Assembly (NCBI GenBank): GCA_949287685.1
Contig: CASEHF010000001.1
Location: 880 to 64,879, forward strand
From: an uncultured Christensenella sp.
Lineage (GTDB): Bacteria; Bacillota; Clostridia; Christensenellales; UBA1242
Direction: 5' to 3'
Length of the DNA: 64,000 nt
This document shows positions 563 to 61,820 of this stretch, piece by piece. The position numbers were made by a program, and so were the translations under genes. The notes beneath the pieces were generated by a model. That model was not told the origin of the DNA, ran no database searches, and saw only the letters and a program-made list of their open reading frames with translations. Numbering within the stretch: position 1 is the first letter of the stretch; every line of letters starts with the position of its first letter.

Positions 563-750
563 ATCATCCTCATCCTCGACCCTGTAAGAGTAGTTAGTTG
601 TATGTTCCGTTATAATAAAAGCCTAGGCTGGTGCAAAACTATTCGTTTCTTACTATACTAAGTACTCTTGCGCCAGACTTCCTGCAAGCAGGAAGGCATC
701 CTGAGTGTCGACCCGCGTAAGCCTTCAGACGAAGGATCTATTCCTCTTAA
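563..750 (+). repeat. mosaic intergenic repeat cluster R1 (modules V + A + Y, somewhat degenerate)
   Basis: Contains CATCCT..CGACCC..GTTAGTTGT..TTCCGTTATAAT, then AGGCTGGTGCA..TGCGCCAGACTTCCTGCAAGCAGGAAGGCATCCTGAG, then ..CAGACGAAGGATCTATTCCTCTTAA. It is homologous to the clusters at 23.3, 29.3, 36 and 61 kb. Confidence 0.8.
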
Positions 751-10244: not shown

Positions 10245-10565
10245 TTGGATGCAGAAAAAGAAAGTGAAAAATTAACAAAATCGTTATTAAAAAAGGCTAT
10301 GGGTTACACGGTTGATGAAGTTGTTGAGGAGTATGTGAGTGAGGAGGATGAATTAAAACTTGTGAAAAAGAAAGTTACTAAAAAACACATTCCTCCTGAT
10401 ATAAACGCAGCGCGGGCTTTGCTGGAAAAGTGTTTTGATAATCAATTTAACAACTTGGCAGAACTATCAGATGCGGAGTTATCTAGCCTCCGCGAGCAGG
10501 TTCTAAACGAAATAAAAGAGCAGGAGCAGCAAAATGGAAATACAAAAAGCAAACCGAAAGTATAA
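10245..10565 (+). CDS. small acidic phage protein, possibly related to the C-terminal part of a terminase small subunit
   Basis: Starts 1 nt after the terL stop. The segment KKAMGYTVDEVVEEY..LKLVKKKVTKKHIPPDINAARALLE resembles a motif I recall from Firmicute phage TerS proteins (GYEYEE...K.V.K..PPD..A...L). That assignment is weak. Confidence 0.45.
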   Translation: MDAEKESEKLTKSLLKKAMGYTVDEVVEEYVSEEDELKLVKKKVTKKHIPPDINAARALLEKCFDNQFNNLAELSDAELSSLREQVLNEIKEQEQQNGNTKSKPKV

Positions 10566-10728
10566 ATGTGCGGGTGAGGTACTATGCAATGAAAAAGTCG
10601 AATTTTGCATTAAATTTAGTAAAAAAACCGTAAATTTATGCGAAAAATGCGCGCGAAATCTATTTCAACAACTTGGTACACATTTAGTCCCAAAGTCGAT
10701 TAAAAACAAATTTAATTACAAGGAGTAA
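10534..10728 (+). CDS. small Cys-rich (zinc-ribbon-like) phage protein
   Basis: An AGGAGC RBS precedes the ATG. Cys pairs occur at CAGEVLC and CEKC. The gene overlaps the upstream ORF and ends 3 nt before the portal gene. Confidence 0.45.
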   Translation: MEIQKANRKYKCAGEVLCNEKVEFCIKFSKKTVNLCEKCARNLFQQLGTHLVPKSIKNKFNYKE

Positions 10729-10731
10729 AAA

Positions 10732-12675: not shown

Positions 12676-12676
12676 A

Positions 12677-13486
12677 ATGATAGAAAATCTACCATTTAGT
12701 TTACCTGAGTTTAACCTCGAGGAAATAAAAGATGATGGCTCGACTGATTTGGGGACTTTCAAGTCGGTAAAGACTTTAAAGGAGGCATATGACAGCTTGC
12801 GTAGTTGTTTTACAAAAAACGCGATGGAATTGGCAGAAATTAAGAAAAATATGTCTCAAAATGCGGATAATACACAAAATACCGAAAATAACGCCGAACT
12901 ATTCGCAAAACAAGACCAAAACGCCACAAAAGCGCCTCAAAATAACGAAAATTTGAGCAAACAGGCTGATTTAAATGAGATGAGAGCCGAGATTAATGAA
13001 AGCGATGATATTAGCCCCGTACAGTCAGACAAGGCACAGACCCCTGACACTACGATTACTTCGGACAAGGCAACAGCCCCCGAAAAACCGAACTTTTTGG
13101 ATAATGCAGATTGGTCCAAAAAGGCGGAAAAATTTTTTGAAACATACCCGATAGCGCGTGAGCATACAAAGGAACTTGCCGAAGCTTTGGCGAAAGACAA
13201 GAATTTTGTAAATAACGAAAATTCCCTTTTGGCTGCTTGGGTAAAAGTGCTAGAGCAAAATCGGTACAATGTCGAACTAACTGATGATTTTATCGAAAAA
13301 AACATTGTAAATAATCAAAAAATTAAAGATTTGATTATCAAAAACTATTTAAACGATATCAAAACTTTACGGTCTGCACCGCCAGTTATCGCTTCTAGTC
13401 AGGGAGTTTCCGCACAAGGAACGACTCATATTCGCGCAAACGATATGCAAGAAGCGAAAGAATTGGCAAAAAAACTATTTGAATAG
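12677..13486 (+). CDS. putative capsid scaffolding protein
   Basis: The preferred start is the ATG at 12677 (RBS AGGAGGCA), not the track start at 12638, which lies inside the portal gene. The protein is acidic, low-complexity and helical, and is encoded directly before the capsid genes. Confidence 0.55.
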   Translation: MIENLPFSLPEFNLEEIKDDGSTDLGTFKSVKTLKEAYDSLRSCFTKNAMELAEIKKNMSQNADNTQNTENNAELFAKQDQNATKAPQNNENLSKQADLNEMRAEINESDDISPVQSDKAQTPDTTITSDKATAPEKPNFLDNADWSKKAEKFFETYPIAREHTKELAEALAKDKNFVNNENSLLAAWVKVLEQNRYNVELTDDFIEKNIVNNQKIKDLIIKNYLNDIKTLRSAPPVIASSQGVSAQGTTHIRANDMQEAKELAKKLFE

Positions 13487-13496
13487 GAGATGAAGT

Positions 13497-14675
13497 ATGA
13501 TTACATTACAGACTGCACAAAACGCCTTGAAAACTATTTATCTCGAGGCGATTAGCAATCAGTTAAATTCGTGCGTGGACCCTGTGTTTAATATGATTAA
13601 GCAGAGTACCGCCGATGTTTATGGTAGAAATATCGTAAAACTTGTCCCGTTCGGACTAAATGGCGGGATTGGCGCTGGTGATGAAACTGGTGCACTACCC
13701 GCAGGGGCTGACAGCCATTATGTGAATTTTACCACAACATTGAAAAATTTGTATGGAATGATTGAAATTTCGGATAAAGCAATTCGCTCCTCTGCGAACG
13801 ATGAGGGCGCTTTTGTAAATCTGCTGACTGCGGAAATGGATGGACTACTGCAGTCGAGCAAGTTCAACCTTAGTCGTATGTTTTACGGAGATGGAAGTGG
13901 AAATTTAATTAAATCTATCAGCGCTATCGACACAACGAACAAAGCAATGACAGTCGACAACTCGTATGCATTTGCGGAAGGTATGCTGCTTGACTTTTAT
14001 ATGTCCAATGTTCTTGATGCGAATATGAAAGGGGTCGAGGTGCTGAAAGTTGATCACGCTAACAAAAAAGTTTACTTAAGCACTGTGTCCTCGAACTTTA
14101 CCGACACGAATAAGACCAAATACACCGTTTGTGTTCAGGGTAGCAAGGACAAGGAACTCACAGGACTTGGTGCGTTGTTTGATTCTGATGCTACTACACT
14201 CTATGGTATTACTAGGGCAAACTATGCGTACTTGATGCCGTTGACATATACAAAACAAAGTACTGACACTTTTAATGAAAAGTTTATCCAAAAATATATA
14301 GATTTGCTCGAGGTTAGGTCTGGTTATCAGCCTGACATTATCGTTTGTGGTGGTGACACGCTTTACGACATTATGGATATGTTGGCAGGTTATGCGACTA
14401 ATATCGATGCGGCAAACCTGACAGGCGGATACACCAGCGTATCATTCTGTGGGGTGCCTTTGATTAGAAATCGCTTTGACTCTGCTGACAACTTAATGAT
14501 GCTAAATACGACACAGTTTACCTTGCATCAACTTTGCGATTGGGAGTGGCTCACTCACAACGATGGCTCAATTTTAAAACAAAAAGAAGGTTATGCGACA
14601 TATTCCGCAACTCTAGTAAAATACGCGGATTTAATATGTGACAGACCAAATGCGCAAGCATTAATTACATTATAG
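13497..14675 (+). CDS. phage major capsid protein, paralog 1
   Basis: A 392-aa protein with a GGAG RBS, encoded right after the scaffold gene. It is alignable end to end with the next gene. An HK97-type fold is inferred from size and position only. Confidence 0.75.
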   Translation: MITLQTAQNALKTIYLEAISNQLNSCVDPVFNMIKQSTADVYGRNIVKLVPFGLNGGIGAGDETGALPAGADSHYVNFTTTLKNLYGMIEISDKAIRSSANDEGAFVNLLTAEMDGLLQSSKFNLSRMFYGDGSGNLIKSISAIDTTNKAMTVDNSYAFAEGMLLDFYMSNVLDANMKGVEVLKVDHANKKVYLSTVSSNFTDTNKTKYTVCVQGSKDKELTGLGALFDSDATTLYGITRANYAYLMPLTYTKQSTDTFNEKFIQKYIDLLEVRSGYQPDIIVCGGDTLYDIMDMLAGYATNIDAANLTGGYTSVSFCGVPLIRNRFDSADNLMMLNTTQFTLHQLCDWEWLTHNDGSILKQKEGYATYSATLVKYADLICDRPNAQALITL

Positions 14676-14687
14676 GGAGGTTAGAAA

Positions 14688-15854
14688 ATGATATCTTTAA
14701 CTACAGCGGATAGCGCTTTGAAAAATGTTTATCTTGATGTGATTACAAACCAGTTAAACAACAAACTCGACCCTTTTTATGCAAAAATCGATAAAACTAC
14801 TCAAGATGTAGCGGGAAATGAGGTCAAAAAATTGGTAGCTCTAGGCATCAATGGTGGTATCGGGGCAGGTTCTGAAATCGGTTCGCTGCCAACATCGCAT
14901 GAGAATAACTACCTAGCCCTTACCTCCAAACTAAAAAACCTTTATGGCACAATCGAAATCTCGGACAAGGCTTTGCGCGCGAGTCGCAGTGAGGCTGGTG
15001 CGTTTTTGAATTTGCTCAATGCGGAAATGGAGAATTTGATTGAGTCAAGCCGATTTAATTTTAGGCGTATGCTGTATGGTGATGGCTCGGGGTATTTGGG
15101 TAGTGTAAATGATGATGTTGCTGGTAGCAATGTGTACGAGGTGACAGACCCATACCGTTTTGTGGTTGGGATGCGACTTGATGGATATACCGAGGAGGGA
15201 ACTCCACTGGAAACATACCAAAATCAAACCGTACTCGATGTAAACTACGAGGAGTCCACCATAACTCTACCAATAGCGGTCACCGAGGAACTTGAACTTG
15301 AGCCGATTCGCCTTTATTTTGCAGGGTCAAGGGACAAGGAATTTATAGGTTTAGAGGGAGTATGCAATGCCAATATTAAAGAAATTTATGGTATTGACCG
15401 TACAAATATCTCAGCTCTAAATGCTCTAAATGAAAGTTATGGAACATTGACTATAACTGCGCTAATGAAAACATTGGATAATTTAAAACTAAACTCAAAC
15501 TCTACTAGCGACTTTATTATCAGTAGTTATCACTTTAGGCAGAAATTGCAAGAGGTTTTAAAACAAAAAAGTATGAATACAGACATCACAATGCTGGAGG
15601 GGGGATTTAGGTCGATTACTTTCAATGGTATGCCTGTTTATACTGTACAATTTGTAGAAGATGGATGTGCTTACATACTTGATTCCTCTGTTTGGCATAT
15701 GCACCAGCTCTGTGACTGGACTTGGTTAACCAACAACAAGGGCGAAGTGCTACACCAGCGTGAGGGATATCCTACACATGTTGCGACTTTGGTTAAATAC
15801 TGTGATTTAATTTGCAATCGCCCAAACACAATTGCTAAGGTAAAATCAATTTAA
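14688..15854 (+). CDS. phage major capsid protein, paralog 2 (possible vertex/penton specialist)
   Basis: A 388-aa protein with a GGGAGG RBS. It shares blocks with paralog 1: L/INGGIGAG, LKNLYG.IEISDKA.R.S, M.YGDGSG, HQLCDW.WLT.N.G and ATLVKY.DLIC.RPN. Confidence 0.75.
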   Translation: MISLTTADSALKNVYLDVITNQLNNKLDPFYAKIDKTTQDVAGNEVKKLVALGINGGIGAGSEIGSLPTSHENNYLALTSKLKNLYGTIEISDKALRASRSEAGAFLNLLNAEMENLIESSRFNFRRMLYGDGSGYLGSVNDDVAGSNVYEVTDPYRFVVGMRLDGYTEEGTPLETYQNQTVLDVNYEESTITLPIAVTEELELEPIRLYFAGSRDKEFIGLEGVCNANIKEIYGIDRTNISALNALNESYGTLTITALMKTLDNLKLNSNSTSDFIISSYHFRQKLQEVLKQKSMNTDITMLEGGFRSITFNGMPVYTVQFVEDGCAYILDSSVWHMHQLCDWTWLTNNKGEVLHQREGYPTHVATLVKYCDLICNRPNTIAKVKSI

Positions 15855-15855
15855 A

Positions 15856-16236
15856 ATGGCTTTAATTAGCATAAAAAATGATGTTTTTAACATTTGCGAG
15901 CGTATAAAGCGCATAAATCCGCATTATTTTGTAGTGTACAATACAGACAGACATCAATACGAAGTGCATAATTCTAAACAATTTGCTAATACATTCTGCA
16001 TTTCTTGCGAAAATGGGTTAAATTATAGTGTTATTTCAAAATTAAGAAAGACAAAAATCGAAAATATAGACAAAATTGTGAAAGAAATAGATGAAATTAA
16101 CGAAAAAATTGAAAAAAACACAAAAAAAGAGATAATGGATGTCGCAAGTGTAAAAGCACAAGAAATGTTTAATTACGCCAAAACTAAAATTGATGATTGC
16201 AATTTTGATGATAGTTATATAACTAAATGGGTTTAA
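15856..16236 (+). CDS. phage hypothetical protein (Lys/Glu-rich C-terminal half)
   Basis: Starts 1 nt after the capsid gene stop and fits the operon packing. No family recognised. Confidence 0.55.
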   Translation: MALISIKNDVFNICERIKRINPHYFVVYNTDRHQYEVHNSKQFANTFCISCENGLNYSVISKLRKTKIENIDKIVKEIDEINEKIEKNTKKEIMDVASVKAQEMFNYAKTKIDDCNFDDSYITKWV

Positions 16237-16247
16237 AAGGAGGAAAT

Positions 16248-16817
16248 ATGACAGCAAAAGATGTTATAAAGCATTCGGTAATGTACTTAGGCGAGGGAAA
16301 TCTTGCTTCGACTACCTCGTTAGGTGGCACGGAAGTGCCCGATGACCAGCAAACCGAAAAACTAAATATTTTGCTAACTTGCGTAAATGATGTTGTAGAA
16401 ACACTTGCTTTAATGTATTTTCCCTTAAAATATGAGGAAAAAGTGCAAAATGATACTGGTTTTGTTAGTTTTTCCGAATTAAGCAAAGATTTAGTGGATT
16501 TATTAAAAGTCGTTGATAAATACGGCTATGAATTAGGTTTTAATGCATTTCCTACATATTTCGAGGCGCCAAAAGGCGAGATTACCGTTGTTTATAACTA
16601 TGCGCCGACTGAAGTCGATGATTTTACGGATACTTTGGAGATTGCCGAGGGAAATGTTACCTTGAGGATGCTGAGCATTGGCGTTGTGAGCAGGTACTAC
16701 TTGATTACAGGTATGTACAACGATGCTGAAGCGTGGCAAAATATGTTTGAACGCGCAGTTTTAGTAGCAAAACGCCCAAAAACTGCTAAATTTATTAAAA
16801 AAAGAAGGTGGTTTTAG
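16248..16817 (+). CDS. phage hypothetical protein, possible head-tail adaptor
   Basis: The preferred start is 16248 (RBS AAGGAGGAAATATG), whereas the track start is 16227. The adaptor role is suggested only by position after the capsid genes. Confidence 0.5.
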   Translation: MTAKDVIKHSVMYLGEGNLASTTSLGGTEVPDDQQTEKLNILLTCVNDVVETLALMYFPLKYEEKVQNDTGFVSFSELSKDLVDLLKVVDKYGYELGFNAFPTYFEAPKGEITVVYNYAPTEVDDFTDTLEIAEGNVTLRMLSIGVVSRYYLITGMYNDAEAWQNMFERAVLVAKRPKTAKFIKKRRWF

Positions 16818-18298
16818 TGTTTTATACTGAAAATGTACCCAATATTAGCAAAAATAACTTGCGCGTAAAGTTTAGCGACTTCTCAAAAGGAATCAACACA
16901 AATATTGCCGAAAACATTTTACCTCTAAATTACGCAGTTAATGCGTTTAATTACGATTTTAATTCTGGCGCACTGACTCCGGGGCTTGGATTAAAAGAGT
17001 TGGAGATTTATAACGGTAGTACTACTAAAAATATGTTTATGCCAGAAGTCGGTGTTAGCATTAAAAAATTTTGGCATTTTAGGCGCTACGACCACAGTTT
17101 AAATCAATTTTCACCGCTTTTAATGGTGTATACTGATAATGAAAAAATATTTATGGGCAGATTAATGACTCAAGACTATTTTTTCTACGACACAGGTAAG
17201 ACCTTTGATACCGAGCCTACAGGCATAAATTATAGAATCGATGACACTGATTGCTTTTTATGTTGTTCCCCTAATGAAATTACTGTATTTAACGGAACTA
17301 CTACTCCCACGACTTATTCAAATAATGTCCCTGATATAACTTCGGTTGCGCTGCACGCAGGTAGATTGTTTGCGACTACAGGCGGCGACCAGAGTCAACT
17401 TTGGTTTAGTGATGACTTAAATCCGACCAACTGGAATGTTAGCGCTTTCGAGGGTGGTTACATCGAACTCACTGATGAGCGCGGTACGCTAAAAAAGGTC
17501 ATTGAGTCAAATAATTATCTCTATGTGATTAGAGAGTATGGCATCACGCGTGTATCGGGTTGGGGGCTACAGGATGAGTTCACCGTGACCAACTTGTATC
17601 TTACGACTGGCAAACTTTATCACAATAGTGCCGTGTTGTGTGGTGGTGTAATTATGATGCTTTGTCGTGATGGAATTTATTATTTTACTGGCTCCACTAT
17701 GCAAAAACTTGAGTTAGGACTAGATAAATACTTCAAAAATGTCGACAATAGCAACGCAATTGGTGCTTTTTTAGATGGAAAGTACTATTTGGCGTGTCGA
17801 CTGAATTTTGATGATGCTACAATCGGCTGCGAAAGTGCGACTTATGTAAATAATGCCTTAATAGAGTATGATTTGGAAAACGGTAACATAAACATTTTGA
17901 GAGGCGTTGATATTTGTAGTTTGACACCTTTCCAAACTGAATGGTTTAGTAAATTGGTGGTTTGCCGCCGCGATGCTGAGACCAATAAATTGAGTGAGGT
18001 AACGCATGATGGCTTGATTTATAACACGCCAACGAAAAAAGTCTGGACCAGCGCAATGACTGATATCGGTTACCCTGCATATAAAAAAGCTATTCGCTCG
18101 TTATGTTTAAATACTACAAAAGATGTGGAAATAACTATCAAAACGGATGAAAAAGCGTATAATTTTAATGTAAAAGGCTCAAATTCTCCCGTAAAAGTAC
18201 CAATAAATCTAATCACTAAAAAATTTAGTGTTACTTTTTCGAGTAATACTGCTGATTGCGAAATATCAAATCCCGAACTTGAGGTGTCGCTATGTTAA
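16808..18298 (+). CDS. phage structural protein of unknown role (496 aa, beta-rich)
   Basis: GTG start overlapping the previous gene. This is the largest ORF of the distal part and a candidate tail/nozzle or receptor-binding component. No family recognised. Confidence 0.6.
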   Translation: MVLVFYTENVPNISKNNLRVKFSDFSKGINTNIAENILPLNYAVNAFNYDFNSGALTPGLGLKELEIYNGSTTKNMFMPEVGVSIKKFWHFRRYDHSLNQFSPLLMVYTDNEKIFMGRLMTQDYFFYDTGKTFDTEPTGINYRIDDTDCFLCCSPNEITVFNGTTTPTTYSNNVPDITSVALHAGRLFATTGGDQSQLWFSDDLNPTNWNVSAFEGGYIELTDERGTLKKVIESNNYLYVIREYGITRVSGWGLQDEFTVTNLYLTTGKLYHNSAVLCGGVIMMLCRDGIYYFTGSTMQKLELGLDKYFKNVDNSNAIGAFLDGKYYLACRLNFDDATIGCESATYVNNALIEYDLENGNINILRGVDICSLTPFQTEWFSKLVVCRRDAETNKLSEVTHDGLIYNTPTKKVWTSAMTDIGYPAYKKAIRSLCLNTTKDVEITIKTDEKAYNFNVKGSNSPVKVPINLITKKFSVTFSSNTADCEISNPELEVSLC

Positions 18299-18771
18299 GT
18301 AAATTCGTAACACCACAAGACAATTTGGCAAAAATCGAGGATTTGGAGCAGAAAGTAGATTATTTGCTTGAGCAATTAAAAATTCTCAAAAATACCGATA
18401 TAAAGCCTAATTTCATCACTTCATATTCGGCGACAACTCATACAATAAGCGCCGAAGGAATTGGTACAGGCTCGATACCTTTGTTGAATTTTAGTGGTCA
18501 GGCTAATAAAAAAGGCTTTGGGATAGTGAATGCAATCTTTAATACGGACACGGCGCATAATATAATGGCATCATTGAGTTTTTCAAGTAATTTACAACTG
18601 AATACTTTTAATTTACCCGCCGGCAATACTCCTATAACACTCTGTATTGAAATTAATTTAGGGGAAAACTTGATTGGAAATTTAAACATACTAGCAGGTG
18701 AGGCGGATGTAAAGGTATCAAACATCAGCGTTTTAGTGATAGGGGAAAATGTCATAGAAACATCTACATAA
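18292..18771 (+). CDS. phage hypothetical protein (N-terminal coiled-coil, beta-rich C-terminus)
   Basis: Overlaps the upstream stop by 7 nt. The IEDLEQKVDYLLEQLKILK helix is followed by a beta-rich region, which is fiber/spike-like in style only. Confidence 0.5.
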   Translation: MLSKFVTPQDNLAKIEDLEQKVDYLLEQLKILKNTDIKPNFITSYSATTHTISAEGIGTGSIPLLNFSGQANKKGFGIVNAIFNTDTAHNIMASLSFSSNLQLNTFNLPAGNTPITLCIEINLGENLIGNLNILAGEADVKVSNISVLVIGENVIETST

Positions 18772-18935
18772 AAGTTGCAGCAATGTTTATTGTTATTAAA
18801 CTAATGCATAGTACTATAAAAATTGTGTAAAAAAGGTGATAAAAATGCAAAAAATAAATTATACAAGCAAAATTAAAGTAATAAAATTAATTAAAAAGAT
18901 AAAAAAAGAAAAATATTTAAGAAACGGAGGTTTTT

Positions 18936-19925
18936 ATGCAAACGGAAGTTTTAGATGATGAAAAAAGAAAAAATGAAGAGACTGAGAGTAAAATCAGTGA
19001 AGCGCAAAATGTCTCAACTCAAGACAGTTCACAGGTTGGTGATATTGAAAATTCTGGTTCTGTAGCGGTCGGTAATTCTAGCAATGCGCCATTAACTGCT
19101 GGTGTTGACATCGATGCAGTTAAGGACCACTTGCAAGAAATTGAGGATGAGTTTGCTTCGCAATATCCTGTATTTAACGAATCGATTTACGAAGGGCTAG
19201 ATTACAAGAGGGTCGAAATGCCTACGGCTGAAACTATCGAACGAGAGGCACAGAGTGATCTTAGTGGATATAGACAGAGCAATATCGAGAATATACAAAT
19301 TGATTATTTGGCGGATGTCAACTCGTTAAAAAACAAGGAAAATGCGGTGCAGAGCGATTTGGATGCCACTCAAAGCGAACTTGGGGCGGAGCGAGTAACT
19401 GGGCTTGCGGAGCAGCAGGCGCAAAATATTTCACAAGGGATTGAGCGCTCGAGCATAGCGGGCAACCGTGCTGCTGCTTTTAATGCCGCGATTGACAAAG
19501 AACTCGAGGCGGCGCTTAATCAGGCAAACACTGAAATGGCAGAAATTTCCTTGAAGCGTGAAATTGCAGAAAGCGAATTTAGACAAGCATTGGAAAATTT
19601 TGATATTACCTATGCTAACAAGTTGGAAAATCGCATTTCGGAGTTGACAAAAGAGTATTCGAAAAAGCAAGCCGAAGCTGTGGAGTACAACGAACGCATT
19701 CAAAAGCAGCGTGAAAGAGTGTATAACGAGTGGAAGCGCTGGGCTGACACCTATACTTCACAACTAGATTCTCAAAAAGGTATGCAAAAAGCGTACTATG
19801 TCATCGACCAGATCAAGGATATGTCTCGCCGCGATGCTAAGGAATTTTTGAAAGATGGAGACATCGTAAAAGCACTTGGTATTTGGTACAACGCTGTACT
19901 TGACTATGTGGACAGAGTCCTATAA
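18936..19925 (+). CDS. phage hypothetical acidic coiled-coil protein
   Basis: GGAGG RBS. Long helical Q/E/A-rich segments. No family recognised. Confidence 0.55.
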   Translation: MQTEVLDDEKRKNEETESKISEAQNVSTQDSSQVGDIENSGSVAVGNSSNAPLTAGVDIDAVKDHLQEIEDEFASQYPVFNESIYEGLDYKRVEMPTAETIEREAQSDLSGYRQSNIENIQIDYLADVNSLKNKENAVQSDLDATQSELGAERVTGLAEQQAQNISQGIERSSIAGNRAAAFNAAIDKELEAALNQANTEMAEISLKREIAESEFRQALENFDITYANKLENRISELTKEYSKKQAEAVEYNERIQKQRERVYNEWKRWADTYTSQLDSQKGMQKAYYVIDQIKDMSRRDAKEFLKDGDIVKALGIWYNAVLDYVDRVL

Positions 19926-19937
19926 AGAGGTAATATA

Positions 19938-20762
19938 ATGAGTCAAAGCTTAAAAAACAGGCTCAAAAGTTACAGTTTTTGGGTGTCACTAGCAAGTGCG
20001 GTATTGCTGCTTGTCCAAGCAATCGGAAAGCCTCTGGGGCTAGTTATCAATGAGGAGATATATATGTCGATTGTCAACAGTGTGCTTGGGGTGTTTGTCG
20101 TGCTCGGTATCATTTCGCATCCTGCGCAAAATTTACTAAGCAACAAGGACAATCAAAGTGCAACGGTTACGGATAGTACGACTACAGATGGGGCTCTAGA
20201 GGTAAAAACTCAAGATATTGTCGCAAAAAGTGCTAAAAATTCAACGAAAAACGAAGTTTTTTCTCAAAATTTAAATAGTTCAACTACTAATACACGCGTT
20301 TTGAAGGAGGAAAACTCAAGCGGTTTAAGCTTAAATTTAAATGATTTGCAAAGTAGCATTGGGCTGACCGTTAATGAAAATTGCAGCAATGCTGATACAT
20401 ATGGCAATACCAGTATAAACGATGATGTTGCTTTGAGTGACATAAATATTAATAAGGCATACACAAACGATACGAGCACTAGGTCATTGAGTTTGGGCAA
20501 CAACATATTAAATAATAGTAGTAATGGAGAATTTGGTGGCACTAATTACATGAATGGAAGTCCTATTCAAAAAGAGATAGGCAATTCTATTCAAAGTGGT
20601 AAAATAAGTAATTTCGATAATCAAAGTCAAGTAGCAAGTTCGACCGTAAATACACCTCATATAATAAACGGTGTCGAAGTAAAAAATTACTTAAGCGGCG
20701 AGATTAAAAACAGTTCGGGTGGTGTAGAACAGGACAATAAAAGCGATAGTGCAGATAGTTAG
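19938..20762 (+). CDS. holin-like protein (phi LC3-family-like N-terminus) with a long S/N/T-rich C-terminal extension
   Basis: The N-terminus LKNRLKSYSFWVSLASAVLLLVQAIGKPLGLVI...VNSVLGVFVVLGIISHP matches my recollection of phi LC3-type holins (W..R.KNKTFW.ALIPA.LLLVQAV...VVNA.F.VL..LGIV.DP). The remaining roughly 200 aa are low complexity. Confidence 0.6.
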   Translation: MSQSLKNRLKSYSFWVSLASAVLLLVQAIGKPLGLVINEEIYMSIVNSVLGVFVVLGIISHPAQNLLSNKDNQSATVTDSTTTDGALEVKTQDIVAKSAKNSTKNEVFSQNLNSSTTNTRVLKEENSSGLSLNLNDLQSSIGLTVNENCSNADTYGNTSINDDVALSDININKAYTNDTSTRSLSLGNNILNNSSNGEFGGTNYMNGSPIQKEIGNSIQSGKISNFDNQSQVASSTVNTPHIINGVEVKNYLSGEIKNSSGGVEQDNKSDSADS

Positions 20763-21322
20763 GATTATTCTGCTACTGCTAAAACTAATTACCTAATTTG
20801 TATGATTTTTATAGTACTGGGAAGGAGGGTGAAAATGCCCTCTTTCTTTTTTATAAATTTTTTACCATGTGTAAAATTAAATAATTATACTTGTATTTTT
20901 TTTTAAAAATAGATAAAAATCAGCATATTTAATCAAAAATATAGTGCTATGCAATAATCTTTAATATTGCATAGTGCTGTAAATTATAAAATTTTTATCA
21001 AACAAAAATTTTTGCTAACCTCGGGGTTTGGGTATTTAAAGTTTACTAAATATTGCTTGATTTGTAAGTGATTATTTTAATGTTACGAGGCAAATTATTG
21101 TATTATTTTTCGATGACAAATGATGTTTTTAGGGCTTAATTTTTGATCTAAACACTTAATATTTTGTATAGGTGTTTTTAGTAAATATTTTCTAAACCAT
21201 GTGAGTTTGATATTCCCAATCAAGTGTGAGGTCTGTTGTTTTTTGCTGTAAAAAACTGTAAATTTAAAAATAAAAAAAGATTGTTAACCTAATTTATAAA
21301 ATAGGCTACAATCTATTTAATC

Positions 21323-21652
21323 TCAATGAGTGGGTAACACTTGCGGATGTCCGCGCGGTTTTGTGTCCTCGGTTAACCCAAGCGCCTCACGCTGGCGCTC
21401 TTGGGTATATTCCTGTAATGCCCTTGCTAGTTGCTCAGGGCAACTGGTACCGTTTTTACATTTTATTCCATCACAGAGGTCTATGACTTCGGCTATTGGT
21501 TTTCCTACAGCGAAGCGCACGAGCGCTTGCAACGCCCCTACGCAACCTCCTAGGAATTTTAAATCTGTGAGAATACCATTGTCATCGACCTCGAATAAAA
21601 TTTGTCTTGAGCAAGTACCTTGCGGTCTGTATGCTTCCATAATTTCCTCCAA
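21323..21652 (-). CDS. TSCPD-domain protein (TIGR03905-like, 4-Cys)
   Basis: The sequence YRPQGTCSRQILFEVDDNGILTDLKFLGGCVGALQALVRFAVGKPIAEVIDLCDGIKCKNGTSCPEQLARAL fits the TIGR03905 pattern as I remember it. Confidence 0.75.
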   Translation of the reverse strand: MEEIMEAYRPQGTCSRQILFEVDDNGILTDLKFLGGCVGALQALVRFAVGKPIAEVIDLCDGIKCKNGTSCPEQLARALQEYTQERQREALGLTEDTKPRGHPQVLPTH

Positions 21653-21655
21653 TTT

Positions 21656-22198
21656 TTAGCCGAGCAGGTTTGTGTACACAAACTCGTAAAAACTCGGCGC
21701 TTTATCTGTCCAAATTTCCACGGCCTTGACAGCATCGGCGCGTGTTTGGAAATTGATTTTGATTTCAAACATCGGTTCGCTGCTGGCGGTCTCAATGATT
21801 TTGAGTGTCACCATATATGTGCCATCGCTGTTTTTGTGAAAATCAGCGACATACTCCTGCAAACGCTTGAAGTACATACGATTAGTCTTGCAAAACTCGC
21901 TAATTTCCTCGCGTGTTTTTTCGGGAACCTCCTCATAGTAGATGCTGAGCCCACTGCGCCCCTTTGCGGTAAGGGTGTAGCGGCAGCGTTTGTTGTCCTG
22001 TGAATCGGGCGTATAGATAAAGCCATCGCGTAGGAGGTCGTGAAAAACCGACACGCACTCCATGTAGTTTATCCAATCGTTTCTAGTCGTGCAGATATCG
22101 AGAATGAACTGCTCGGTGAGCGGAATCTCGATTTGCTCTAGCATATATAGTAGCATTAATTTTGTTTGAAAATCATCGTTGCTAAACTCTAACTTCAC
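21656..22198 (-). CDS. DUF4364-family protein
   Basis: The N-terminus TKLMLLYMLEQIEIPLTEQFILDI...NYMECVSVFHDLLRDGFI and the overall length match the DUF4364 architecture. The gene is encoded immediately upstream of the TSCPD gene on the same strand. Confidence 0.65.
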   Translation of the reverse strand: MKLEFSNDDFQTKLMLLYMLEQIEIPLTEQFILDICTTRNDWINYMECVSVFHDLLRDGFIYTPDSQDNKRCRYTLTAKGRSGLSIYYEEVPEKTREEISEFCKTNRMYFKRLQEYVADFHKNSDGTYMVTLKIIETASSEPMFEIKINFQTRADAVKAVEIWTDKAPSFYEFVYTNLLG

Positions 22199-22363
22199 TT
22201 TTGACCACTCCTCAAATTAAAACATATATATTGTAGCACACGCAAGGAATTAAGGCAAACAAAACAATATGATTTTTTGTAGTAAAATGCCGAAAAATCG
22301 TTTTTATTTTTTAATTAAATATGCTATAATATGTATAATTATTCATAAATCAGGTGGTAAAAA

Positions 22364-23165: not shown

Positions 23166-23280
23166 TATTCATTATACGAAGTATATCATCATAAAACATT
23201 CTTGGGTTAGTACGAGGGTAACATATCAAAAGTGTACCATTATACACTTCAACTATACCGCAGGATTTGTAGTAAAGTCA

Positions 23281-23697
23281 AGCGGAATAGATTCTTCGTC
23301 TCAGGCTCTGTAAGCAGGAAGGCATTCTGAACCCGCCCCGCGTAAGCCCTTTGTAACTCAGCGTAAAGTGAAAGGTACCATTAGGAACACTTAGTAATAC
23401 GCTGCTCGAAGGATCTATTCCTCTTAAAAATCACCAAACTAACTGCAAACAACTATTCAAAGTGCGTAGTCTTATTTAATATGTATGTATTGCGTGTGCG
23501 GCTACGCACCGAAGGATCTATTCCGCTTAAAAAATCCTTGGGTTACAACTAAAAAAATAAGAGGATGATGCTGGGCTGGCGCGAGAGTATGCTTTTCTAA
23601 TTGTAATAAACACTTGCGCGCCAGACTTCCCGCAAGCGGGAAGGCATCCTGAGCGCTCCCTGCGTTAGCCCTTAGACGAAGGATCTATTCCGCTTAA
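23281..23697. repeat. mosaic intergenic repeat cluster R2 (inverted Y, then Z, W, P, A and Y modules)
   Basis: Starts with AAGCGGAATAGATTCTTCGTCTCAGG and ends with AGACGAAGGATCTATTCCGCTTAA, so the ends are inverted. Three forward copies of GAAGGATCTATTCC(G/T)CTTAA lie at 23408, 23511 and 23678. Confidence 0.85.
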
Positions 23698-23739
23698 GTT
23701 GTATTGTTTACCAGTGCATTGGTATTAATGTCTAATTTA

Positions 23740-25966: not shown

Positions 25967-26045
25967 AGTGGAATAGAGTACATGACTGGCGCTGAAACGC
26001 TTAGCAACGATTAAGAGTGTTTACATGCGCGCCAGCCCAGTGTCC
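25967..26045 (-). repeat. degenerate reverse-oriented A-type repeat unit (cluster R4)
   Basis: The reverse complement reads GGGCTGGCGCGCATGTAAACACTCTTAATCG..CAGCGCCAGTCATGTACTCTATTCCACTT, which resembles module A plus the terminal motif. Confidence 0.45.
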
Positions 26046-26248
26046 ACTTAAAAACACTCTGCGGGTCGATATTTAGGATAACCTCTCTTTTCATATAGAT
26101 ATTCTATATTCTTTACAACATTTGCCAAAAAGTTAAAAAATTATCCAAAAAAGGCTAAAAAGATTTGCAAAAAATAATTAAAATTGCTAAAATTAACTTG
26201 TTCAAAATATTGCTAATCGAATTTAATAACATAACAAGCGAGGTTTTT

Positions 26249-28261
26249 ATGAAAAAAATTTCAAAAGGAAAAACAGGACTACTGATTGCTTGCTTAGGCG
26301 TTTTTGCTTTGGCGATGATTTTGCCTGCATTTTTGTTTAGTTCTAGAGCGGCAGTCGATGCCTTTACGAGCGTGAGTAGTTCAAACGCAGTCGAGGTCGG
26401 TCAACTGTGGGACAGCACAAACAAGACCTTTGAAATAGGCACTATGAGGACACTGCTTAGTTACATATCGACCGATGGCACTCTCGAGAGAATCAACACT
26501 AATAACCAAAATGCCGAAAATATTCGCGGTTACACATTTGGCGGTAAAATAAACGGACAAGCAGTGGTTGTTAACCTCGGTGGCTACAAGTGGCAGGTAG
26601 TGTACCTCACAAAAGACAATTATGGTAACCGTATCGCCACCCTCTTAATGACAAATAACGATGGCACTACAACCTACGGTAATAGCAGCTCAAATTATGG
26701 TGGTAGTAGTTTTACTAGTGGTTTTCCTACCAGTATGTATGGTACTAGCCACATTCGAGCAGTTACTCTAAACAATGGTGGGGCATATGTAAATATTACG
26801 AGTAATAGTTCAAACCCCAGTTCTGTAACTAATGCAGGTAGTCCTTCTACTTCACATCAATACGCACTCTATACAGCCCCTTCGTTGGGCTTAACTCAGT
26901 ATTTGGTGCAGCCTAATAATGTATGGTATCAAAAAGAGCCTCAATTGCTCGGCGCTGATAACCCAATAGGCTATACCCTAAACAACGAATCTCTATCTAC
27001 TAATATAACAACTGGCTGGAACAGTGATAACCCCTCACAGTACTCATACCAAACCAAAGCGTACTATACCCAATGGGGCGCAGACTACCTTTGGTTGCCT
27101 AGTATTTCGGAAACTGGTACCAGTGACTCAGATGCAGGGTTATGGGGACTATCATCTACCGAGCGCTCCGCTTCCTCTATTTGGTGGTCCCGTTCCGGTA
27201 ATTACCTTTCTTCGTACTATGTCTACTACCTGAATTCTAGCGGTTCCGGCTATGCTTACAACAGTGTGAACTATAGCTACGGCGTCCGCCCCGCGCTTCA
27301 CTTAAATCTTGACTCTGCCGCGCTCCGCGCGGCTCAAGATGCGGTCTCCACAACCTTGGATGGGAATGTGTCAGTGACCGCCACATACTCAAGTAATGAA
27401 AATGGGGCAGAGGATGTAGTTACTCTAACATTTAGTCCAAAAAACCCGAATGTTTCAAAAATCAGTCTAGCAATTGACTCGAACCCTATAATAATTAGCG
27501 CGAGCGAAGCGAGCGCTCAAATATTTATCAATGCAGACAATAAGTACCAATACAAGTGTTATAATGATGAAAATGGCTCAATCGTGCTAATTATTCGCGC
27601 GATTATGCAAGATATAAATGTCACAGCCACGAGCGTGGGGGTAAATGCCTCCGTTGCGGGCGGTAGCGGCACGATTGAATCATATAGAGAGGGTGATGTA
27701 CTGTATGTGATTGCGCACCCCGCAACAGGACAGTATGTAAACACTATTACAATCGACAATGCGACCATTACACCGACTTATTACAAGGCGCAAATTTACG
27801 GCGCTGGAAATGCCATAAATGTGCGTTATACTGCTATGGATGCCTCGAATTTGTTCGTACTGGAGTTTGAAAAACTGTTTGCTAGCACGACCGTAGTCTT
27901 TAACCTCTCTACGGTGCTGCCTGACTACGAGGTGCCGCCTACTGTTAATGGCGGCGGCGGAGTGGGGATAGTCGGTACAGTGGCGGCTGCGACCTCTGGA
28001 GGCGAGGTGCGTATGGTCGGTAACGACATTGCAAACGGCGCCGACACGGACACGGTTACCTTTATCGCGGTAGCGTATTCGGGGTACCGTTTTGTAGGTT
28101 GGGTCAATGCAAATGATGAGGATGAGAGTTTTGGGAATTCGGACACTATCAGCCTCACAAAAGAGCAGGTAAACGGCAAGGTTATCAAAGCCGTGTTTGA
28201 AAAAACCGATACCGAATACACCACAAATGGCGAGACAAATAACCAAGATGAAATAGTGTAA
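26249..28261 (+). CDS. large secreted/anchored surface protein (DUF6273-like central motif, C-terminal InlB-B-repeat-like modules)
   Basis: The preferred start is 26249 (GAGGT RBS; MKKISKGKTGLLIACLGVFALAMILPAFLF is a signal/anchor), whereas the track start is 26165. The segment WWSRSGN...YGVRPALHLNL resembles DUF6273. The C-terminus ...VAYSGYRFVGWVN...KVIKAVFEK is B-repeat-like. Confidence 0.75.
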   Translation: MKKISKGKTGLLIACLGVFALAMILPAFLFSSRAAVDAFTSVSSSNAVEVGQLWDSTNKTFEIGTMRTLLSYISTDGTLERINTNNQNAENIRGYTFGGKINGQAVVVNLGGYKWQVVYLTKDNYGNRIATLLMTNNDGTTTYGNSSSNYGGSSFTSGFPTSMYGTSHIRAVTLNNGGAYVNITSNSSNPSSVTNAGSPSTSHQYALYTAPSLGLTQYLVQPNNVWYQKEPQLLGADNPIGYTLNNESLSTNITTGWNSDNPSQYSYQTKAYYTQWGADYLWLPSISETGTSDSDAGLWGLSSTERSASSIWWSRSGNYLSSYYVYYLNSSGSGYAYNSVNYSYGVRPALHLNLDSAALRAAQDAVSTTLDGNVSVTATYSSNENGAEDVVTLTFSPKNPNVSKISLAIDSNPIIISASEASAQIFINADNKYQYKCYNDENGSIVLIIRAIMQDINVTATSVGVNASVAGGSGTIESYREGDVLYVIAHPATGQYVNTITIDNATITPTYYKAQIYGAGNAINVRYTAMDASNLFVLEFEKLFASTTVVFNLSTVLPDYEVPPTVNGGGGVGIVGTVAAATSGGEVRMVGNDIANGADTDTVTFIAVAYSGYRFVGWVNANDEDESFGNSDTISLTKEQVNGKVIKAVFEKTDTEYTTNGETNNQDEIV

Positions 28262-28266: not shown

Positions 28267-28410
28267 AAGAGGAATAGATCCTTCGTCTAAAGGCTCCGTA
28301 AGCAGGGCTCAGGATGACCAGTGCTTTAAAAGTACGGCGTTTACGACTATGCACTACTTATCGGCCGTGCGCCTTCGCACTGTCTACGCGCCGCATCTAT
28401 TCCGCTTTAA
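28267..28410. repeat. mosaic repeat cluster R5 (inverted Y unit plus forward W-like unit)
   Basis: AAGAGGAATAGATCCTTCGTCTAAAGGCTCCGTAAGCAGGGCTCAGGATGAC ... GTGCGCCTTCGCACTGTCTACGCGCCGCATCTATTCCGCTTTAA. It begins 6 nt after the stop at 28261. Confidence 0.75.
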
Positions 28411-28591: not shown

Positions 28592-29275
28592 TTGGAGGAA
28601 CGGCTCTTGGGTATTCTAAATATATTTTTTTCTAATCTCGATGCGGCGCATATCTTTATACTGCTGGGCGCGTGGCTAATTGCGATTGTGGTGGCGATTG
28701 TGTGCCACGAGTGCGCACATAGTTTTGTAGCGGTGAAAATGGGCGATATGACCCCGAAATACGCGGGGAGGCTTTCGCTCAATCCCGCCAGACACTTCGA
28801 TGCGCTGGGGTTTGTGTTTTTGGTTATTCTAGGATTCGGCTGGGCAAAGCCAGTCCCCATAAACCCTAACAACTTCCGTAATGTAAAAAAAGGCGAGATA
28901 CTCGTGTCCCTTGCGGGAATTGTGACAAACTTTATACTGTGCATTATCTTTACCGTTTGTGCTGCGCTCTGCTTTTTGTACCTCGATAGCAGCGTGCTAT
29001 TCTATTACTTCTTGCAGTATGTTTTCTACTTTTTAGCGGCGACAAACTTGTGTTTTGCGGTGTTTAATCTGCTGCCGCTTTACCCGCTAGATGGCTTCAA
29101 CCTAATTCGTGCTTTCTGCCGCTATGACAACAAATTTATTCAATTTATGTACAAGTGGAGTTTCCTCATTATGCTAGTTTTGTTGATTTCGGGCTTGTTT
29201 GGTTGGATAATTTCATTGTTTACCGATGCTGTAATTGGTGGAATTTTCGGTCTGTTTAACATTAATCTAATTTGA
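28592..29275 (+). CDS. site-2 protease family (M50) membrane metalloprotease
   Basis: The HExxH motif lies in a TM segment (IVCHECAHSFVAVKMGD), followed by NPARHFD and a downstream NLLPLYPLDGF motif. TTG start as in the track. Confidence 0.85.
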   Translation: MEERLLGILNIFFSNLDAAHIFILLGAWLIAIVVAIVCHECAHSFVAVKMGDMTPKYAGRLSLNPARHFDALGFVFLVILGFGWAKPVPINPNNFRNVKKGEILVSLAGIVTNFILCIIFTVCAALCFLYLDSSVLFYYFLQYVFYFLAATNLCFAVFNLLPLYPLDGFNLIRAFCRYDNKFIQFMYKWSFLIMLVLLISGLFGWIISLFTDAVIGGIFGLFNINLI

Positions 29276-29302: not shown

Positions 29303-29575
29303 CTGGGCTGGCGCGGTGCGAAGCCGCACACGCAATAAGAAAGTGCAAGTCATACCAACAATAAAATAGTACAAAGCCGTACCTGCAGTACTTTAAAAGT
29401 CTGTCATCCTGAGCGCTCCCCGCGCAAGCCCCTTGACGAAGGATCTATTCCGCTTAAAACATTCTAGACTAACCATAGACAATCATTCAAAGTGCTTAGA
29501 TTATTTAATATGTATCTTATCGGGAGTGCGCCCACGCACCGCCTTCGCACTGCACCTATGCACCGCGCCACTTAA
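29303..29575 (+). repeat. mosaic repeat cluster R6
   Basis: GGGCTGGCGCG.. (start of module A), ..TTTAAAAGTCTGTCATCCTGAGCGCTCCCCGCGCAAGCCCCTTGACGAAGGATCTATTCCGCTTAA (Y), then a W-like ..TATCGGGAGTGCGCCCACGCACCGCCTTCGCACTGCACC.. Confidence 0.8.
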
Positions 29576-35063: not shown

Positions 35064-35139
35064 GCTACTGTGGCTCAGTTGGGAGAGCAGTTGATTCGTA
35101 ATCAACAGGTCGCGGGTTCGAGTCCCGCCAGTAGCTCCA
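35064..35139 (+). tRNA. tRNA-Thr (anticodon CGU), CCA encoded
   Basis: Cloverleaf by hand: acceptor GCTACTG/CAGTAGC, D arm GCTC-AGTTGGG-AGAGC, anticodon stem GTTGA/TCAAC with loop TTCGTAA, T arm GCGGG-TTCGAGT-CCCGC, then TCCA. Confidence 0.9.
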
Positions 35140-35160
35140 ATAAAAGTAATTTATATTCTA

Positions 35161-35313
35161 CCAACTGGCTCAGTTGGCGCGACGCGTTAAGAAAACAGCA
35201 CGGGCGTGCTGTTTTTAGCCAAAGCGGACAAGGCGACTAGCCTTGGCGGGGAGAGCAGTTGATTCGTAATCAACAGGTCGCGGGTTCGAGTCCCGCCAGT
35301 AGCTCCAATAAAA
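35161..35313 (+). pseudogene. decayed partial duplicate of tRNA-Thr (5' part diverged and interrupted; 3' 65 bp identical)
   Basis: 35249-35313 is identical to 35081-35145 (D-arm 3' side through CCA plus AATAAAA). The 5' piece CCAACTGGCTCAGTTGG (35161-35177) is separated from it by about 70 nt containing the terminator. Its acceptor 5' strand cannot pair with CAGTAGC. Confidence 0.6.
35192..35216 (+). terminator. rho-independent terminator after tRNA-Thr
   Basis: 10-bp stem AAAACAGCAC / GTGCTGTTTT with loop GGGC and a T-rich 3' side. Confidence 0.6.
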
Positions 35314-35893: not shown

Positions 35894-35938
35894 ATAACAA
35901 AACTGTCAAAACTGTCTTATATCCTATTTAAATACTTG

Positions 35939-36658
35939 GTCATCCTGAGTGTCGACCTCGGTGCGTGGGCGCAGTGCGAAGGCGCACACCCGATAGATAA
36001 AAGTAAACTACTCGCTTTGTATGATTGTTTACGGTTTGCTTAGAGTTGTTTTTAAGCGGAATAGATTCTTCGTCTCAGGCTCCGTAAGCAGGGCTCAGAA
36101 TGACATTGCTTTAAAAGTACCGCGGGTACAGCAGACTACTTTTCCTAGGCTGGTTAAAAGTGTGTAGCAGTTTATTTGTCTAACAAATAAAAGTCTGTCA
36201 TCCTGAGTGTCGACCCGCGAAGCCTTCAGACGAAGGATCTATTCCGCTTAAGACAACCTCCAATAAATCACGAGTTAACATTAAAAGTGAGTAGTCGTAC
36301 TATATTTATCTATCGGGAGTGCGCCTACGCACCGAAGGATCTATTCCGCTTAAAAAATTCTCGGGTTACAACTAAAAAATAAGAGGATGATGCTGGGCTG
36401 GCGCGGGAGTATACTTTTCTAATTGTGATAATCATTCACGCGCCAGACTTCCCGCAAGCGGGAAGGCATCCTGAGCCTCGACCCGCGGTGCGAAGGCGCA
36501 CTCCCGATAAATAGTACAAGGCCGTATTCCCAAACGATACTAATAAAAGTCTGTCATCCTGAGACCTGCTTACGAAGCCTTCGTAACTCAGCGTAGAGTG
36601 AAAGGTAACATTAGGAATACTTAGCAATACGCTGCCCGAAGGATCTCATCCGCTATAA
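35939..36658. repeat. largest mosaic repeat cluster R7 (about 720 bp, units in both orientations)
   Basis: Contains Y, inverted W, inverted Y, Y, W, P, A and Z modules. Forward terminal motifs lie at 36232, 36334 and 36638 and an inverted one at 36052. The cluster lies between a protein gene and the rRNA promoter. Confidence 0.9.
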
Positions 36659-60820: not shown

Positions 60821-61368
60821 GTCATCCTGAGCGCTCCCCGCGCAAGCCTTCAGACGAAGGATTTATTCCGCTTAAAAATTCTTGGGCTATAACTTAAAAA
60901 ATAAGAGGCAGAGGGGCTGGCGCGAGAGTATGCGTTTCTAATTGAAGTACTCATTCACGCGCCAGACTTCCCGCGAGCGGGAAGGCATCCTGAGTGTCGA
61001 CCCGAAAAGTGTGGTTAGTTGTGCATTCCGCTATAATTAAAGTATTGTCATCCTGAGCGCTCCCCGCGTAAGCCCTTTGATGAAGAATCTATTCCTCTAA
61101 AAAATCTCGGGATACAACTTTGAATAATAAGAGGCAGAGGGGCTGGCGCGAGAGTATGCGTTTCTAATTGAAGTACTCACTTACGCGCCAGACTTCCCGC
61201 AAGCGGGAAGGCATCCTGAGCGCTCCCCGCGCAAGCCCCTTGTAACTCAGCGTAAAGTGAAAGGCACCATTAGGAACACCTAGTAATACGCTGCCCGAAG
61301 GATCTATTCCGCTTAATTACTTTTATTGAGCTGAGCACTCTCCGCGCCGAATAATCTATTCTTCTTAA
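60821..61368 (+). repeat. mosaic repeat cluster R8 (Y, P, A, V, Y, P, A, Z and a degenerate Y; all forward)
   Basis: Two tandem P+A units (60876-60994 and 61100-61220). Terminal motifs lie at 60855, 61082 and 61297, with a degenerate one at about 61345. Confidence 0.9.
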
Positions 61369-61820
61369 AACTTTGATCTTTAAAAGCAAATAATCGTAAA
61401 AATTGCGAATTATTTAGGTAAAAATTGGAAATTTTTGTAAAAAACTTACATAAATATTATGAAAATAAAAAAATTTTAAAAAATATTTTCTATTTTCAAT
61501 TTAAAAAGTTGACTTTTATTGTCGATTTTTAGATAATTATTGCGTATAAATATCGAAAATTGCAATATTTTTTTACAAAATGTAGTTATTTTTAGATAAA
61601 ATGACCACACTATTAGTGCTTTTAAGTAATAAAATTCGTTTGGCTCAAATGAACTTATTTCGTTTAATAAGATGCTTCTTTGTATTCAAATCTACTTTAT
61701 TTACTTTTTGACTATTTAAATATATTGCATTACAAAAATAGTCCCACGAGCTAGATGACTAAAGATTAAAAAATTGAATTGCTTTATAAATTTATTTTTT
61801 CGTTAATTTAGGAGGGAAAT

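Follow-up and report, generated by a model that had tools for sequence, protein, structure and literature searches.

A 64,000-nucleotide stretch of DNA from an uncultured Christensenella sp. (assembly GCA_949287685.1, contig CASEHF010000001.1, positions 880 to 64,879 of the forward strand; hereafter the window) carries five copies of a palindromic repeat, module A, which an earlier reading of the letters (the original prediction) had taken for a folded RNA or a transposase-recognised hairpin under selection. We here regard module A, with a probability of roughly 0.55, as a cassette belonging to a mosaic intergenic DNA repeat that is modular and restricted to one lineage. A structured RNA gene is improbable, since what maintains the stems is mainly conservation of their sequence, and the compensatory evidence is thin. 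The repeat family, which appears to be undescribed so far, would consist of alternative cassettes set between short conserved joints (CATCCTGAG, CGAAGGATCT-ATTCCGCTTAA and GGGCTGGCGCG), module A representing the cassette between the GGGCTGGCGCG joint and the CATCCTGAG unit fused to it.

Results

Anatomy of module A

The window was searched for the hairpin CTTCCCGCAAGCGGGAAG (CTTCCCG-CAAG-CGGGAAG) with up to two mismatches, yielding five matches against a chance expectation of 0.03, all of them on the plus strand and at the places predicted. Besides the reported copy, detailed further below, these were:

625..705, plus strand: diverged copy of module A with two compensated pairs and one wobble
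36395..36475, plus strand: copy of module A within the cluster 35934-36660, upstream of the 16S promoter
60914..60994, plus strand: copy of module A with loop CGAG
61140..61220, plus strand: copy of module A 226 nt past the preceding one, the two forming part of a direct U-A-U-A-U array (U, the unit described below)

As originally noted, the loop is the sole difference of the 60914 copy. The copies themselves were thus real, but their start had been placed about 17 nt too late: the true start lies at a ..TAAGAGG.. leader (23556 in the reported copy), and a leader of the form ..T(T/A)AAGAGG-N5-9-GGGCTGG precedes all module A copies in both genomes that carry them. Copies could be aligned over ~116 nt, the repeat itself measuring about 100 bases with two palindromic stems, and the span of the repeat family (D1) around the reported copy was 23556-23671. 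At its 3' end, module A continues unbroken into the next module. The reported copy is organised as follows:

23556..23572, plus strand: 5' leader AATAAGAGGATGATGCT, part of the repeat and outside the coordinates first given
23576..23583, plus strand: 5' arm of the outer palindrome, CTGGCGCG, within the shared connector GGGCTGGCGCG
23584..23616, plus strand: 33-nt interior, with the invariant core TTTCTAATT at 23594-23602
23617..23624, plus strand: 3' arm of the outer palindrome, CGCGCCAG, which pairs with CTGGCGCG
23626..23643, plus strand: 18-nt palindrome CTTCCCG-CAAG-CGGGAAG, read as a 7-bp hairpin or as 8-nt arms around AA
23644..23653, plus strand: unpaired invariant tail GCATCCTGAG, which from its second base (23645, CATCCTGAG) onward is also the 5' end of the U unit
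23645..23697, plus strand: U unit fused to module A, CATCCTGAG-(GC-rich 23 nt)-CGAAGGATCT-ATTCCGCTTAA

Two trivial explanations were discarded. A small-peptide reading of AAGAGG-ATGATG...TAA failed on the ATG, which is absent from the copies at 60914 and 61140 and from all copies outside the window, and an assembly artefact was ruled out by the identity of the clusters in independent assemblies.

Copies outside the window were sought in one genome per species across 185,579 species, with a pattern in which most of the hairpin was unconstrained. The scan yielded 21 further full copies, to which the covariance model described below added a truncated one, all 22 in a single metagenome-assembled genome (MAG), that of the uncultured Clostridia bacterium BRZ_PQ__bin18, whose 20 module A-bearing loci are labelled L001-L020. 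The set analysed below thus consists of 26 full copies, 5 from the window and 21 from the MAG, or 27 with the truncated one.

Stems are conserved as sequence

The predicted two-helix fold was recovered as both the minimum-energy and the centroid structure in 5/5 window copies, whether folded as RNA or as DNA, and both helices persisted within 231 nt of context. RNA folding z-scores were modest (-2.0 to -3.1) and similar for the minus strand, module A folding equally well on either strand. In the 15-pair model of the original prediction, 99% of the cells were paired.

Compensatory change was the main argument for selection on the fold. Copy 625 carries the hairpin CTTCCTG/CAGGAAG (C:G to T:A), as had been stated, and its outer helix CTGGTGCA/TGCGCCAG holds, together with the expected single T.G wobble, a second compensated pair (G:C to A:T). 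Significance was assessed with 500 shuffles per model on 26 near-identical copies from two genomes only. Under the 15-pair model, both-side changes were found in two pairs against 0.2 expected (4/500 shuffles), both in copy 625, in which five changes over 30 stem positions yielding two complete pairs have by combinatorics a p of ~0.02. The signal was gone (54/500 shuffles) upon addition of the 4-bp inner extension suggested by RNAfold (GAGU/ACUC), an extension that we rejected, 16/26 cells being unpaired at pair 18-42. The helices are real and show a small excess of symmetric double changes, but this excess is confined to one copy.

The strongest covariation among all column pairs of the module was between the first and last bases of the loop, which change from C..G to T..A in four MAG copies. 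Adding this loop-end pair to the model gave 2/500 shuffles for both-side pairs and 0/500 for cells and for the covariation score, even though the pair cannot form in the hairpin: it leaves a 2-nt loop, as would be natural for 8-nt arms in a DNA palindrome but not for an RNA hairpin. Single-side stem changes, all of them transitions, were as often disruptive as tolerable on the plus strand, with four C.A or A.C mismatches (L006, L005, L008 and L011) and four G.U wobbles (L011, copy 625, L002 and L014); this even split favours neither strand. L011 also has an inverted loop, CTTG in place of CAAG.

Contrary to the claim that pairing rather than sequence is preserved, divergence over the 26 copies was 0% in the unpaired tail GCATCCTGAG (0 differences in 260 cells, the tail being partly fixed by the search pattern), 0.5-2% in the stems, 10% in the loop and 18% in the interior. 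In the 3' half of module A more generally, some positions were fixed in this way, apparently with little loss of copies as judged by the covariance-model search described below. Since the tail and the stems alike diverge little, the sequence is conserved whether paired or not. Nor does the interior consist of 35-40 freely varying nucleotides. Its length is exactly 33 nt, with no indels, in 26/26 full copies, and its 18% mean column divergence spares a TTTCT.A.T core of which TTTCT, A30 and T32 are invariant; an all-column-pair scan revealed no base-pair-like covariation inside it. Altogether, 50/83 module A positions are identical in the two species.

In copy 625, the hairpin variant (CCTG-CAAG-CAGG) is similar to the central part of the inverted U subfamily (CTCTG-TAAG-CAGGG), and a junction 'GTAAGCAGG|AAGGCATTCTGA' is present at 23298-23330; because of this resemblance and this junction, the 'compensatory' pair may, to judge from the sequences, represent a swapped hairpin and not two point mutations. 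More generally, the symmetric double changes would originate from whole-hairpin swaps, intrastrand template switching or selection on the palindrome; selection on a single RNA strand would not be their source. When a covariance model of the 26 copies was run over all fetched DNA, it returned only one extra copy, a truncated one (L008:441-521) whose 3' hairpin arm is lost or replaced, so that a stronger covariation test had no diverged copies to draw on.

Module A is one of several units sharing the same joints

Module A was always found fused to a CATCCTGAG...CGAAGGATCT (U) unit, inside mosaic clusters of conserved joints and alternative cassettes. U units have the form CATCCTGAG-(21-24 or about 73 nt)-CGAAGGATCT-ATTCCGCTTAA and number ~65 in the sampled DNA, in both orientations. 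Their ends covary between ATCCT/AGGAT and ATTCT/AGAAT (42 C-G and 15 T-A, against 12 discordant cases, 7 T.G and 5 C.A). Examples, with ends CATCCT...AGGATC or CATTCT...AGAATC, occur at 29405-29446, 36199-36240 and 60823-60864 of the window and in loci L001-L020. Beyond the U stem lie a conserved tandem G.A/A.G and a G-C pair, and the insert of the long U has an invariant CAGCG/CGCTG with weak covariation only.

The connector GGGCTGGCGCG is followed 27 times by the module A interior and 10 times by another module (GTGCGAAGTCGCAC...) with no 3' arm downstream; likewise, the 5' arm GGCTGGCGCG occurs 10 times before a different module that lacks the 3' arm. The clusters and the related element of the window are:

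~560-754, 23280-23700, 28267-28410, 29303-29463, 35934-36660 and 60821-61373: clusters of conserved joints and alternative cassettes
23280..23700, plus strand: cluster with the reported copy, in the order inverted U, long U, another unit, module A, U
60821..61373, plus strand: cluster between the rplQ terminator and the promoter of a Flg_new surface-protein gene
25986..26040, minus strand: diverged module A-like element, GGGCTGGCGCG-(34 nt, different interior)-GCGCCAG, with no hairpin

Two composite units (28267-28410 and 29303-29463), each made of a connector, a GTGCGAAGGCGCAC hairpin, an AT-rich leader and a U unit, form an inverted pair that brackets an M50 peptidase gene (28592-29275). In the MAG, a cluster seemingly lies between the hairpin-like halves GGGTTGGAATAAA ... 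TTTATTCCAA (L019, ~2266-2310 and beyond the cluster, minus strand), followed by a T-rich terminator, an arrangement whose sequence suggests insertion into or beside a terminator stem.

Distribution across genomes

Outside the window and the MAG, module A was not encountered. In metagenome contigs of the Joint Genome Institute (JGI), a pattern consisting of the unpaired motifs only (TTTCTNATT-N40-42-GGCATCCTGAG) gave 13 matches, all due to chance as judged by the covariance model, and viral contigs gave no module A match. Rfam 15 searched with the whole window at the gathering threshold returned no relevant match, while its search with three clusters at E values up to 10 returned chance matches only (<=15 bits). 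A literature search by sequence words found primers only.

Relatives were chosen through homologues of L17, which form a graded series of uncultured Clostridia; none of the contigs fetched in this way belonged to the MAG. Over 238 kb around rplQ in six species whose L17 proteins are 94-82% identical, neither module A nor the diagnostic U-start, connector and tail motifs were seen. The sister species (L039-L041; L17 94% identical) has the same rplQ-Flg_new synteny, a homologous terminator and an alignable promoter region, and is devoid of the 560-nt cluster 60821-61373 at the orthologous spacer, providing an empty-site comparison. The genes flanking module A in the window have no homologue in the 20 module A-bearing loci of the MAG. 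Mean copy identity was 0.90 and 0.87 within the two genomes and 0.86 between them, and same-strain contigs (ENA, Logan) carried identical repeats with no insertion polymorphism.

This patchy presence, the non-orthologous positions and the empty site point to mobile or recombining DNA and not to a vertically conserved RNA gene. Spread and reshuffling would take place at the DNA level, either through a trans-acting enzyme acting on single-stranded DNA hairpins (an HUH transposase of the kind associated with repetitive extragenic palindromes, REPs, and known as REP-associated tyrosine transposase, RAYT, or a site-specific recombinase) or through recombination at the joints. The two palindromes would then be features of the DNA, as hairpins, cruciforms or a symmetric binding site.

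An independent small RNA gene or riboswitch-like element appears very improbable. Its stable two-helix fold and many copies would fit, but module A lacks its own promoter and a U-tract terminator, its tail reading GCAUCCUGAG; it runs unbroken into the neighbouring modules, matches no Rfam family and occupies different positions in the two genomes.

Genomic position and orientation

All module A copies are intergenic, in 14 unidirectional, 7 convergent and at most 1 divergent contexts. Module A was co-oriented with the genes in 14/14 tandem-gene contexts (p about 6e-5), and with the upstream gene in 24/25 cases. Transcription and replication could not be separated as the source of this orientation because the plus strand of the window is G-rich throughout and the local GC skew of the MAG is uninformative. 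Some clusters begin 10-64 nt past a stop codon and before the terminator (L007, L009, L018, L017 and L019), others sit after the terminator and before the next promoter; terminator positions were mostly read from the sequence, a terminator tool having been run on one region only, where it did not call the rplQ terminator. The module A hairpin was not called either in the terminator scan, and is followed by GCATCCTGAG and not by the T run of an intrinsic terminator.

These positions bear on the possibility that module A is a cis-acting RNA in the 3' untranslated region (UTR) of the upstream gene, serving in exonuclease protection, processing or protein binding. Protection or processing of mRNA from the 3' UTR has been proposed for REPs and for the BOX and bcr1 repeats, and such a role is compatible with an origin in mobile DNA. 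We regard it as possible though rather unlikely. The co-orientation in tandem contexts and with upstream genes, the clusters lying between stop codon and terminator, the stability of the helices in context, the two compensated pairs of copy 625 and the strong conservation of the copies, none of them decayed, all speak for it. However, a terminator-like hairpin and T run lie upstream of at least eight copies (625, 60914, 61140, L002, L006, L014, L015 and L016), which are nonetheless co-oriented with the genes. Wobbles and mismatches balance 4:4 on the plus strand, an RNA hairpin could not accommodate the loop-end covariation, conservation is stronger in the unpaired tail than in the stems, the 5' arm lacks a partner in 10 units, and the family is absent from the sampled DNA of close relatives carrying the same genes. 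Were module A a cassette of mosaic DNA, clusters between stop codon and terminator would be transcribed, and might act as incidental 3' UTR stem-loops.

Several observations weigh against a mosaic DNA repeat. In the 214 kb sampled for enzymes and protein families, no transposase or recombinase was seen, nor any multi-copy enzyme family, and phmmer with an approximate IS200 TnpA query matched none of 500 ORFs (open reading frames). Neither a target-site duplication nor the exact boundaries of an element could be established, the flanks running into other modules. Most neighbours are housekeeping genes such as dnaN, ftsW and the signal peptidase gene. Absence from relatives is unproven because only ~20 kb per genome was sampled. 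Decayed copies are almost absent, and this scarcity, together with the conserved positions identical in two species, could equally reflect purifying selection on a function, while the strict co-orientation with genes also fits an RNA role. As for the proposal that a transposase recognises the hairpin as DNA, it lies nearer to the evidence than an RNA does, but such an enzyme was not found in the 214 kb.

Among the proteins encoded in the sampled DNA, a single multi-copy family was found, that of the Flg_new/DUF6273 surface proteins, whose genes often lie just downstream of clusters; 8/27 module A copies are directly upstream of Flg_new, DUF6273 or BspA-LRR surface-protein genes. Module A might bind, as double-stranded DNA, a dimeric protein such as a nucleoid-associated factor, regulator or recombinase, in arrays that favour recombination and variation of the adjacent surface-protein genes in the manner of the Neisseria intergenic mosaic elements (NIMEs), a proposition that we consider quite unlikely. 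It would account for the symmetric changes of the arms, loop ends included, for the invariance of the unpaired TTTCT.A.T and GCATCCTGAG and for the copies upstream of surface-protein genes, and the NIMEs offer a precedent (PMC1797815). No candidate binding protein or recombinase was identified in the 214 kb, however, most copies stand beside the housekeeping genes named above, and the enrichment near surface-protein genes is confounded by the long upstream spacers of these genes.

Comparison with known repeat systems

In NIME arrays, short conserved repeats separate alternative cassettes of 50-150 bp near surface-antigen genes (PMC1797815). The repeats, dRS3, are 20 bp long (ATTCCCNNNNNNNNGGGAAT) and form inverted repeats ATTCCC-N8-GGGAAT that flank RS cassettes (PMC1797815). 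The present family resembles them in its short, conserved, GC-rich palindromic joints (CATCCTGAG, CGAAGGATCT and GGCTGGCGCG) between many alternative, AT-richer cassettes, in its dynamic arrays, and in its intergenic clustering, often beside surface-protein genes, as for the 8/27 copies above. The module A hairpin, CTTCCC-GCAAGC-GGGAAG, is near-identical to the dRS3 arms, but its palindrome CTTCCC-N6-GGGAAG measures 18 nt instead of 20 and ends in C/G instead of A/T, and so is not a dRS3. The host also differs, being of the Clostridia and not a Neisseria, as does the invariably single orientation of module A. We know of no phage or recombinase that targets module A.

REPs are located downstream of coding regions, where the neighbouring ORFs are unidirectional or convergent (Di Nocera et al. 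2013, PMC3733652). One end of their palindrome bears an unpaired tag, GTAG or CGTC (TGTC/CCTC); the stem of 8-9 bp begins with two A-T pairs, the loop measures 4-5 nt and the short tail is similar to CCA; units mostly form inverted head-to-head dimers, and the gene of the cognate RAYT, a Y1 HUH transposase, is flanked by the repeats (PMC3733652). CGTC repeats have been reported in five phyla, Firmicutes not among them (PMC3733652). Like REPs and the mosaic elements made of them (bacterial interspersed mosaic elements, BIMEs), module A is a small GC-rich palindrome found in mosaic clusters, and its contexts are those of REPs. In contrast to REPs, its hairpin carries neither GTAG nor CGTC, the flanks being ..CCAGA on the plus strand and ..GGATGC on the minus strand; its stem is 7 bp long (8-nt palindrome arms) and starts with C-G and T-A, around a 4-nt loop and with a GCA tail; all 27 copies are single or direct, never head-to-head dimers; and no RAYT gene was seen in 214 kb. 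A tag is found in the adjoining U unit only, as TGTC (window) or GGTC (MAG) before ATCCT. The U unit, which starts (T/G)GTC-AT.. and ends ..AT-C as a TGTC-tagged REP does, resembles CGTC/TGTC-tagged REPs with an enlarged loop.

BOX of pneumococci, with its modular boxA-boxB(n)-boxC structure, and bcr1 of Bacillus cereus are intergenic repeats of Firmicutes. Compared by description, both are like the present family in being modular and intergenic, with a stable predicted fold, transcribed with their neighbours and thought to be mobile without coding capacity; BOX, however, has a fixed order of modules, as opposed to free recombination at joints here, and similarity in sequence would not be expected. 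The palindrome-associated transposable elements (PATEs) derived from IS200/IS605 share end-proximal hairpins and the lack of coding capacity, and the strong orientation bias of module A is compatible with a single-stranded transposition such as theirs, on the lagging-strand template. Unlike for PATEs, no tnpA/tnpB, left or right ends, or cleavage or target motif could be demonstrated in the sampled DNA. Because several features that define REPs are missing, we file the family under the general kind of intergenic palindromic mosaic repeats, with no named family.

Other features of the window

A prophage-like block spans 3000-22200, with genes for a terminase large subunit (8798-10243), a P22-like portal (10732-12675), a DUF7934 protein (18936-19925) and a holin (19938-20762), and is flanked on both sides by repeat clusters, at ~600-750 and 23280-23700. 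A tRNA-Thr gene lies at 35064-35139; 168 nt on, a 65-nt stretch is 100% identical to its 3' part (35081-35145 = 35249-35313). A second tRNA-like call on this stretch was weak (Rfam, 33.6 bits; ARAGORN, a 'tRNA-Ala' of 100 nt), and the copy may have been left behind by an integration at the tRNA, or else represent a chimeric pseudo-tRNA. The 16S rRNA gene (37055-38569) is complete and has its own promoter at ~36863-36891; the remaining 25 kb contain neither 23S nor 5S, so that the rRNA genes appear to be unlinked.

The ORF after rpsS (47371-47988), rplV (L22) by operon order, encodes 205 amino acids, and its 3' part carries short tandem AAAAAGAC-rich repeats (47762-47957), so that the protein has a C-terminal extension of low complexity; in relatives L24 is likewise long, at about 175 amino acids. 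Within the DUF6273/Flg_new_2 gene 26165-28261, an 80-nt patch (27200-27279) accounts for ~25 of the 30 differences between the window and an ENA contig of the same strain, and lies within 124 nt of the end of that contig. The patch is probably an assembly-end chimera with a paralogue, gene conversion among surface-protein paralogues being the alternative. Finally, a palindromic motif, TCGTAAAAATT(A/G)CGA, is found once in the window (~61385-61412), upstream of the Flg_new gene promoter, and 3-4 times in the sister species (L039, ~10700-11050); it may be an operator.

Discussion

A bolder extension of these findings would make the family a Firmicutes counterpart of the NIMEs, with recombination-promoting arrays built and used by a dedicated hairpin enzyme and driving variation of adjacent surface-protein genes in gut Clostridia, or would make module A a selected RNA or single-stranded DNA element recognised by such an enzyme. 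We find this doubtful. A selected structured element would explain the 50/83 positions identical in two species and the missing decayed copies.

At present, recognition of the family as an intergenic mosaic repeat is of value as an annotation and as a caution that palindromic repeats can mimic conserved RNA structure. Intergenic mosaic repeats contribute to the plasticity of genomes, interrupt metagenome assemblies and can affect how adjacent genes are expressed or vary. The hosts here are uncultured Clostridia with small genomes in which the repeats often lie ahead of surface-protein genes, and if a mobilising enzyme or a role in recombination were to prove true, the REP/NIME paradigm would extend to gut Firmicutes.

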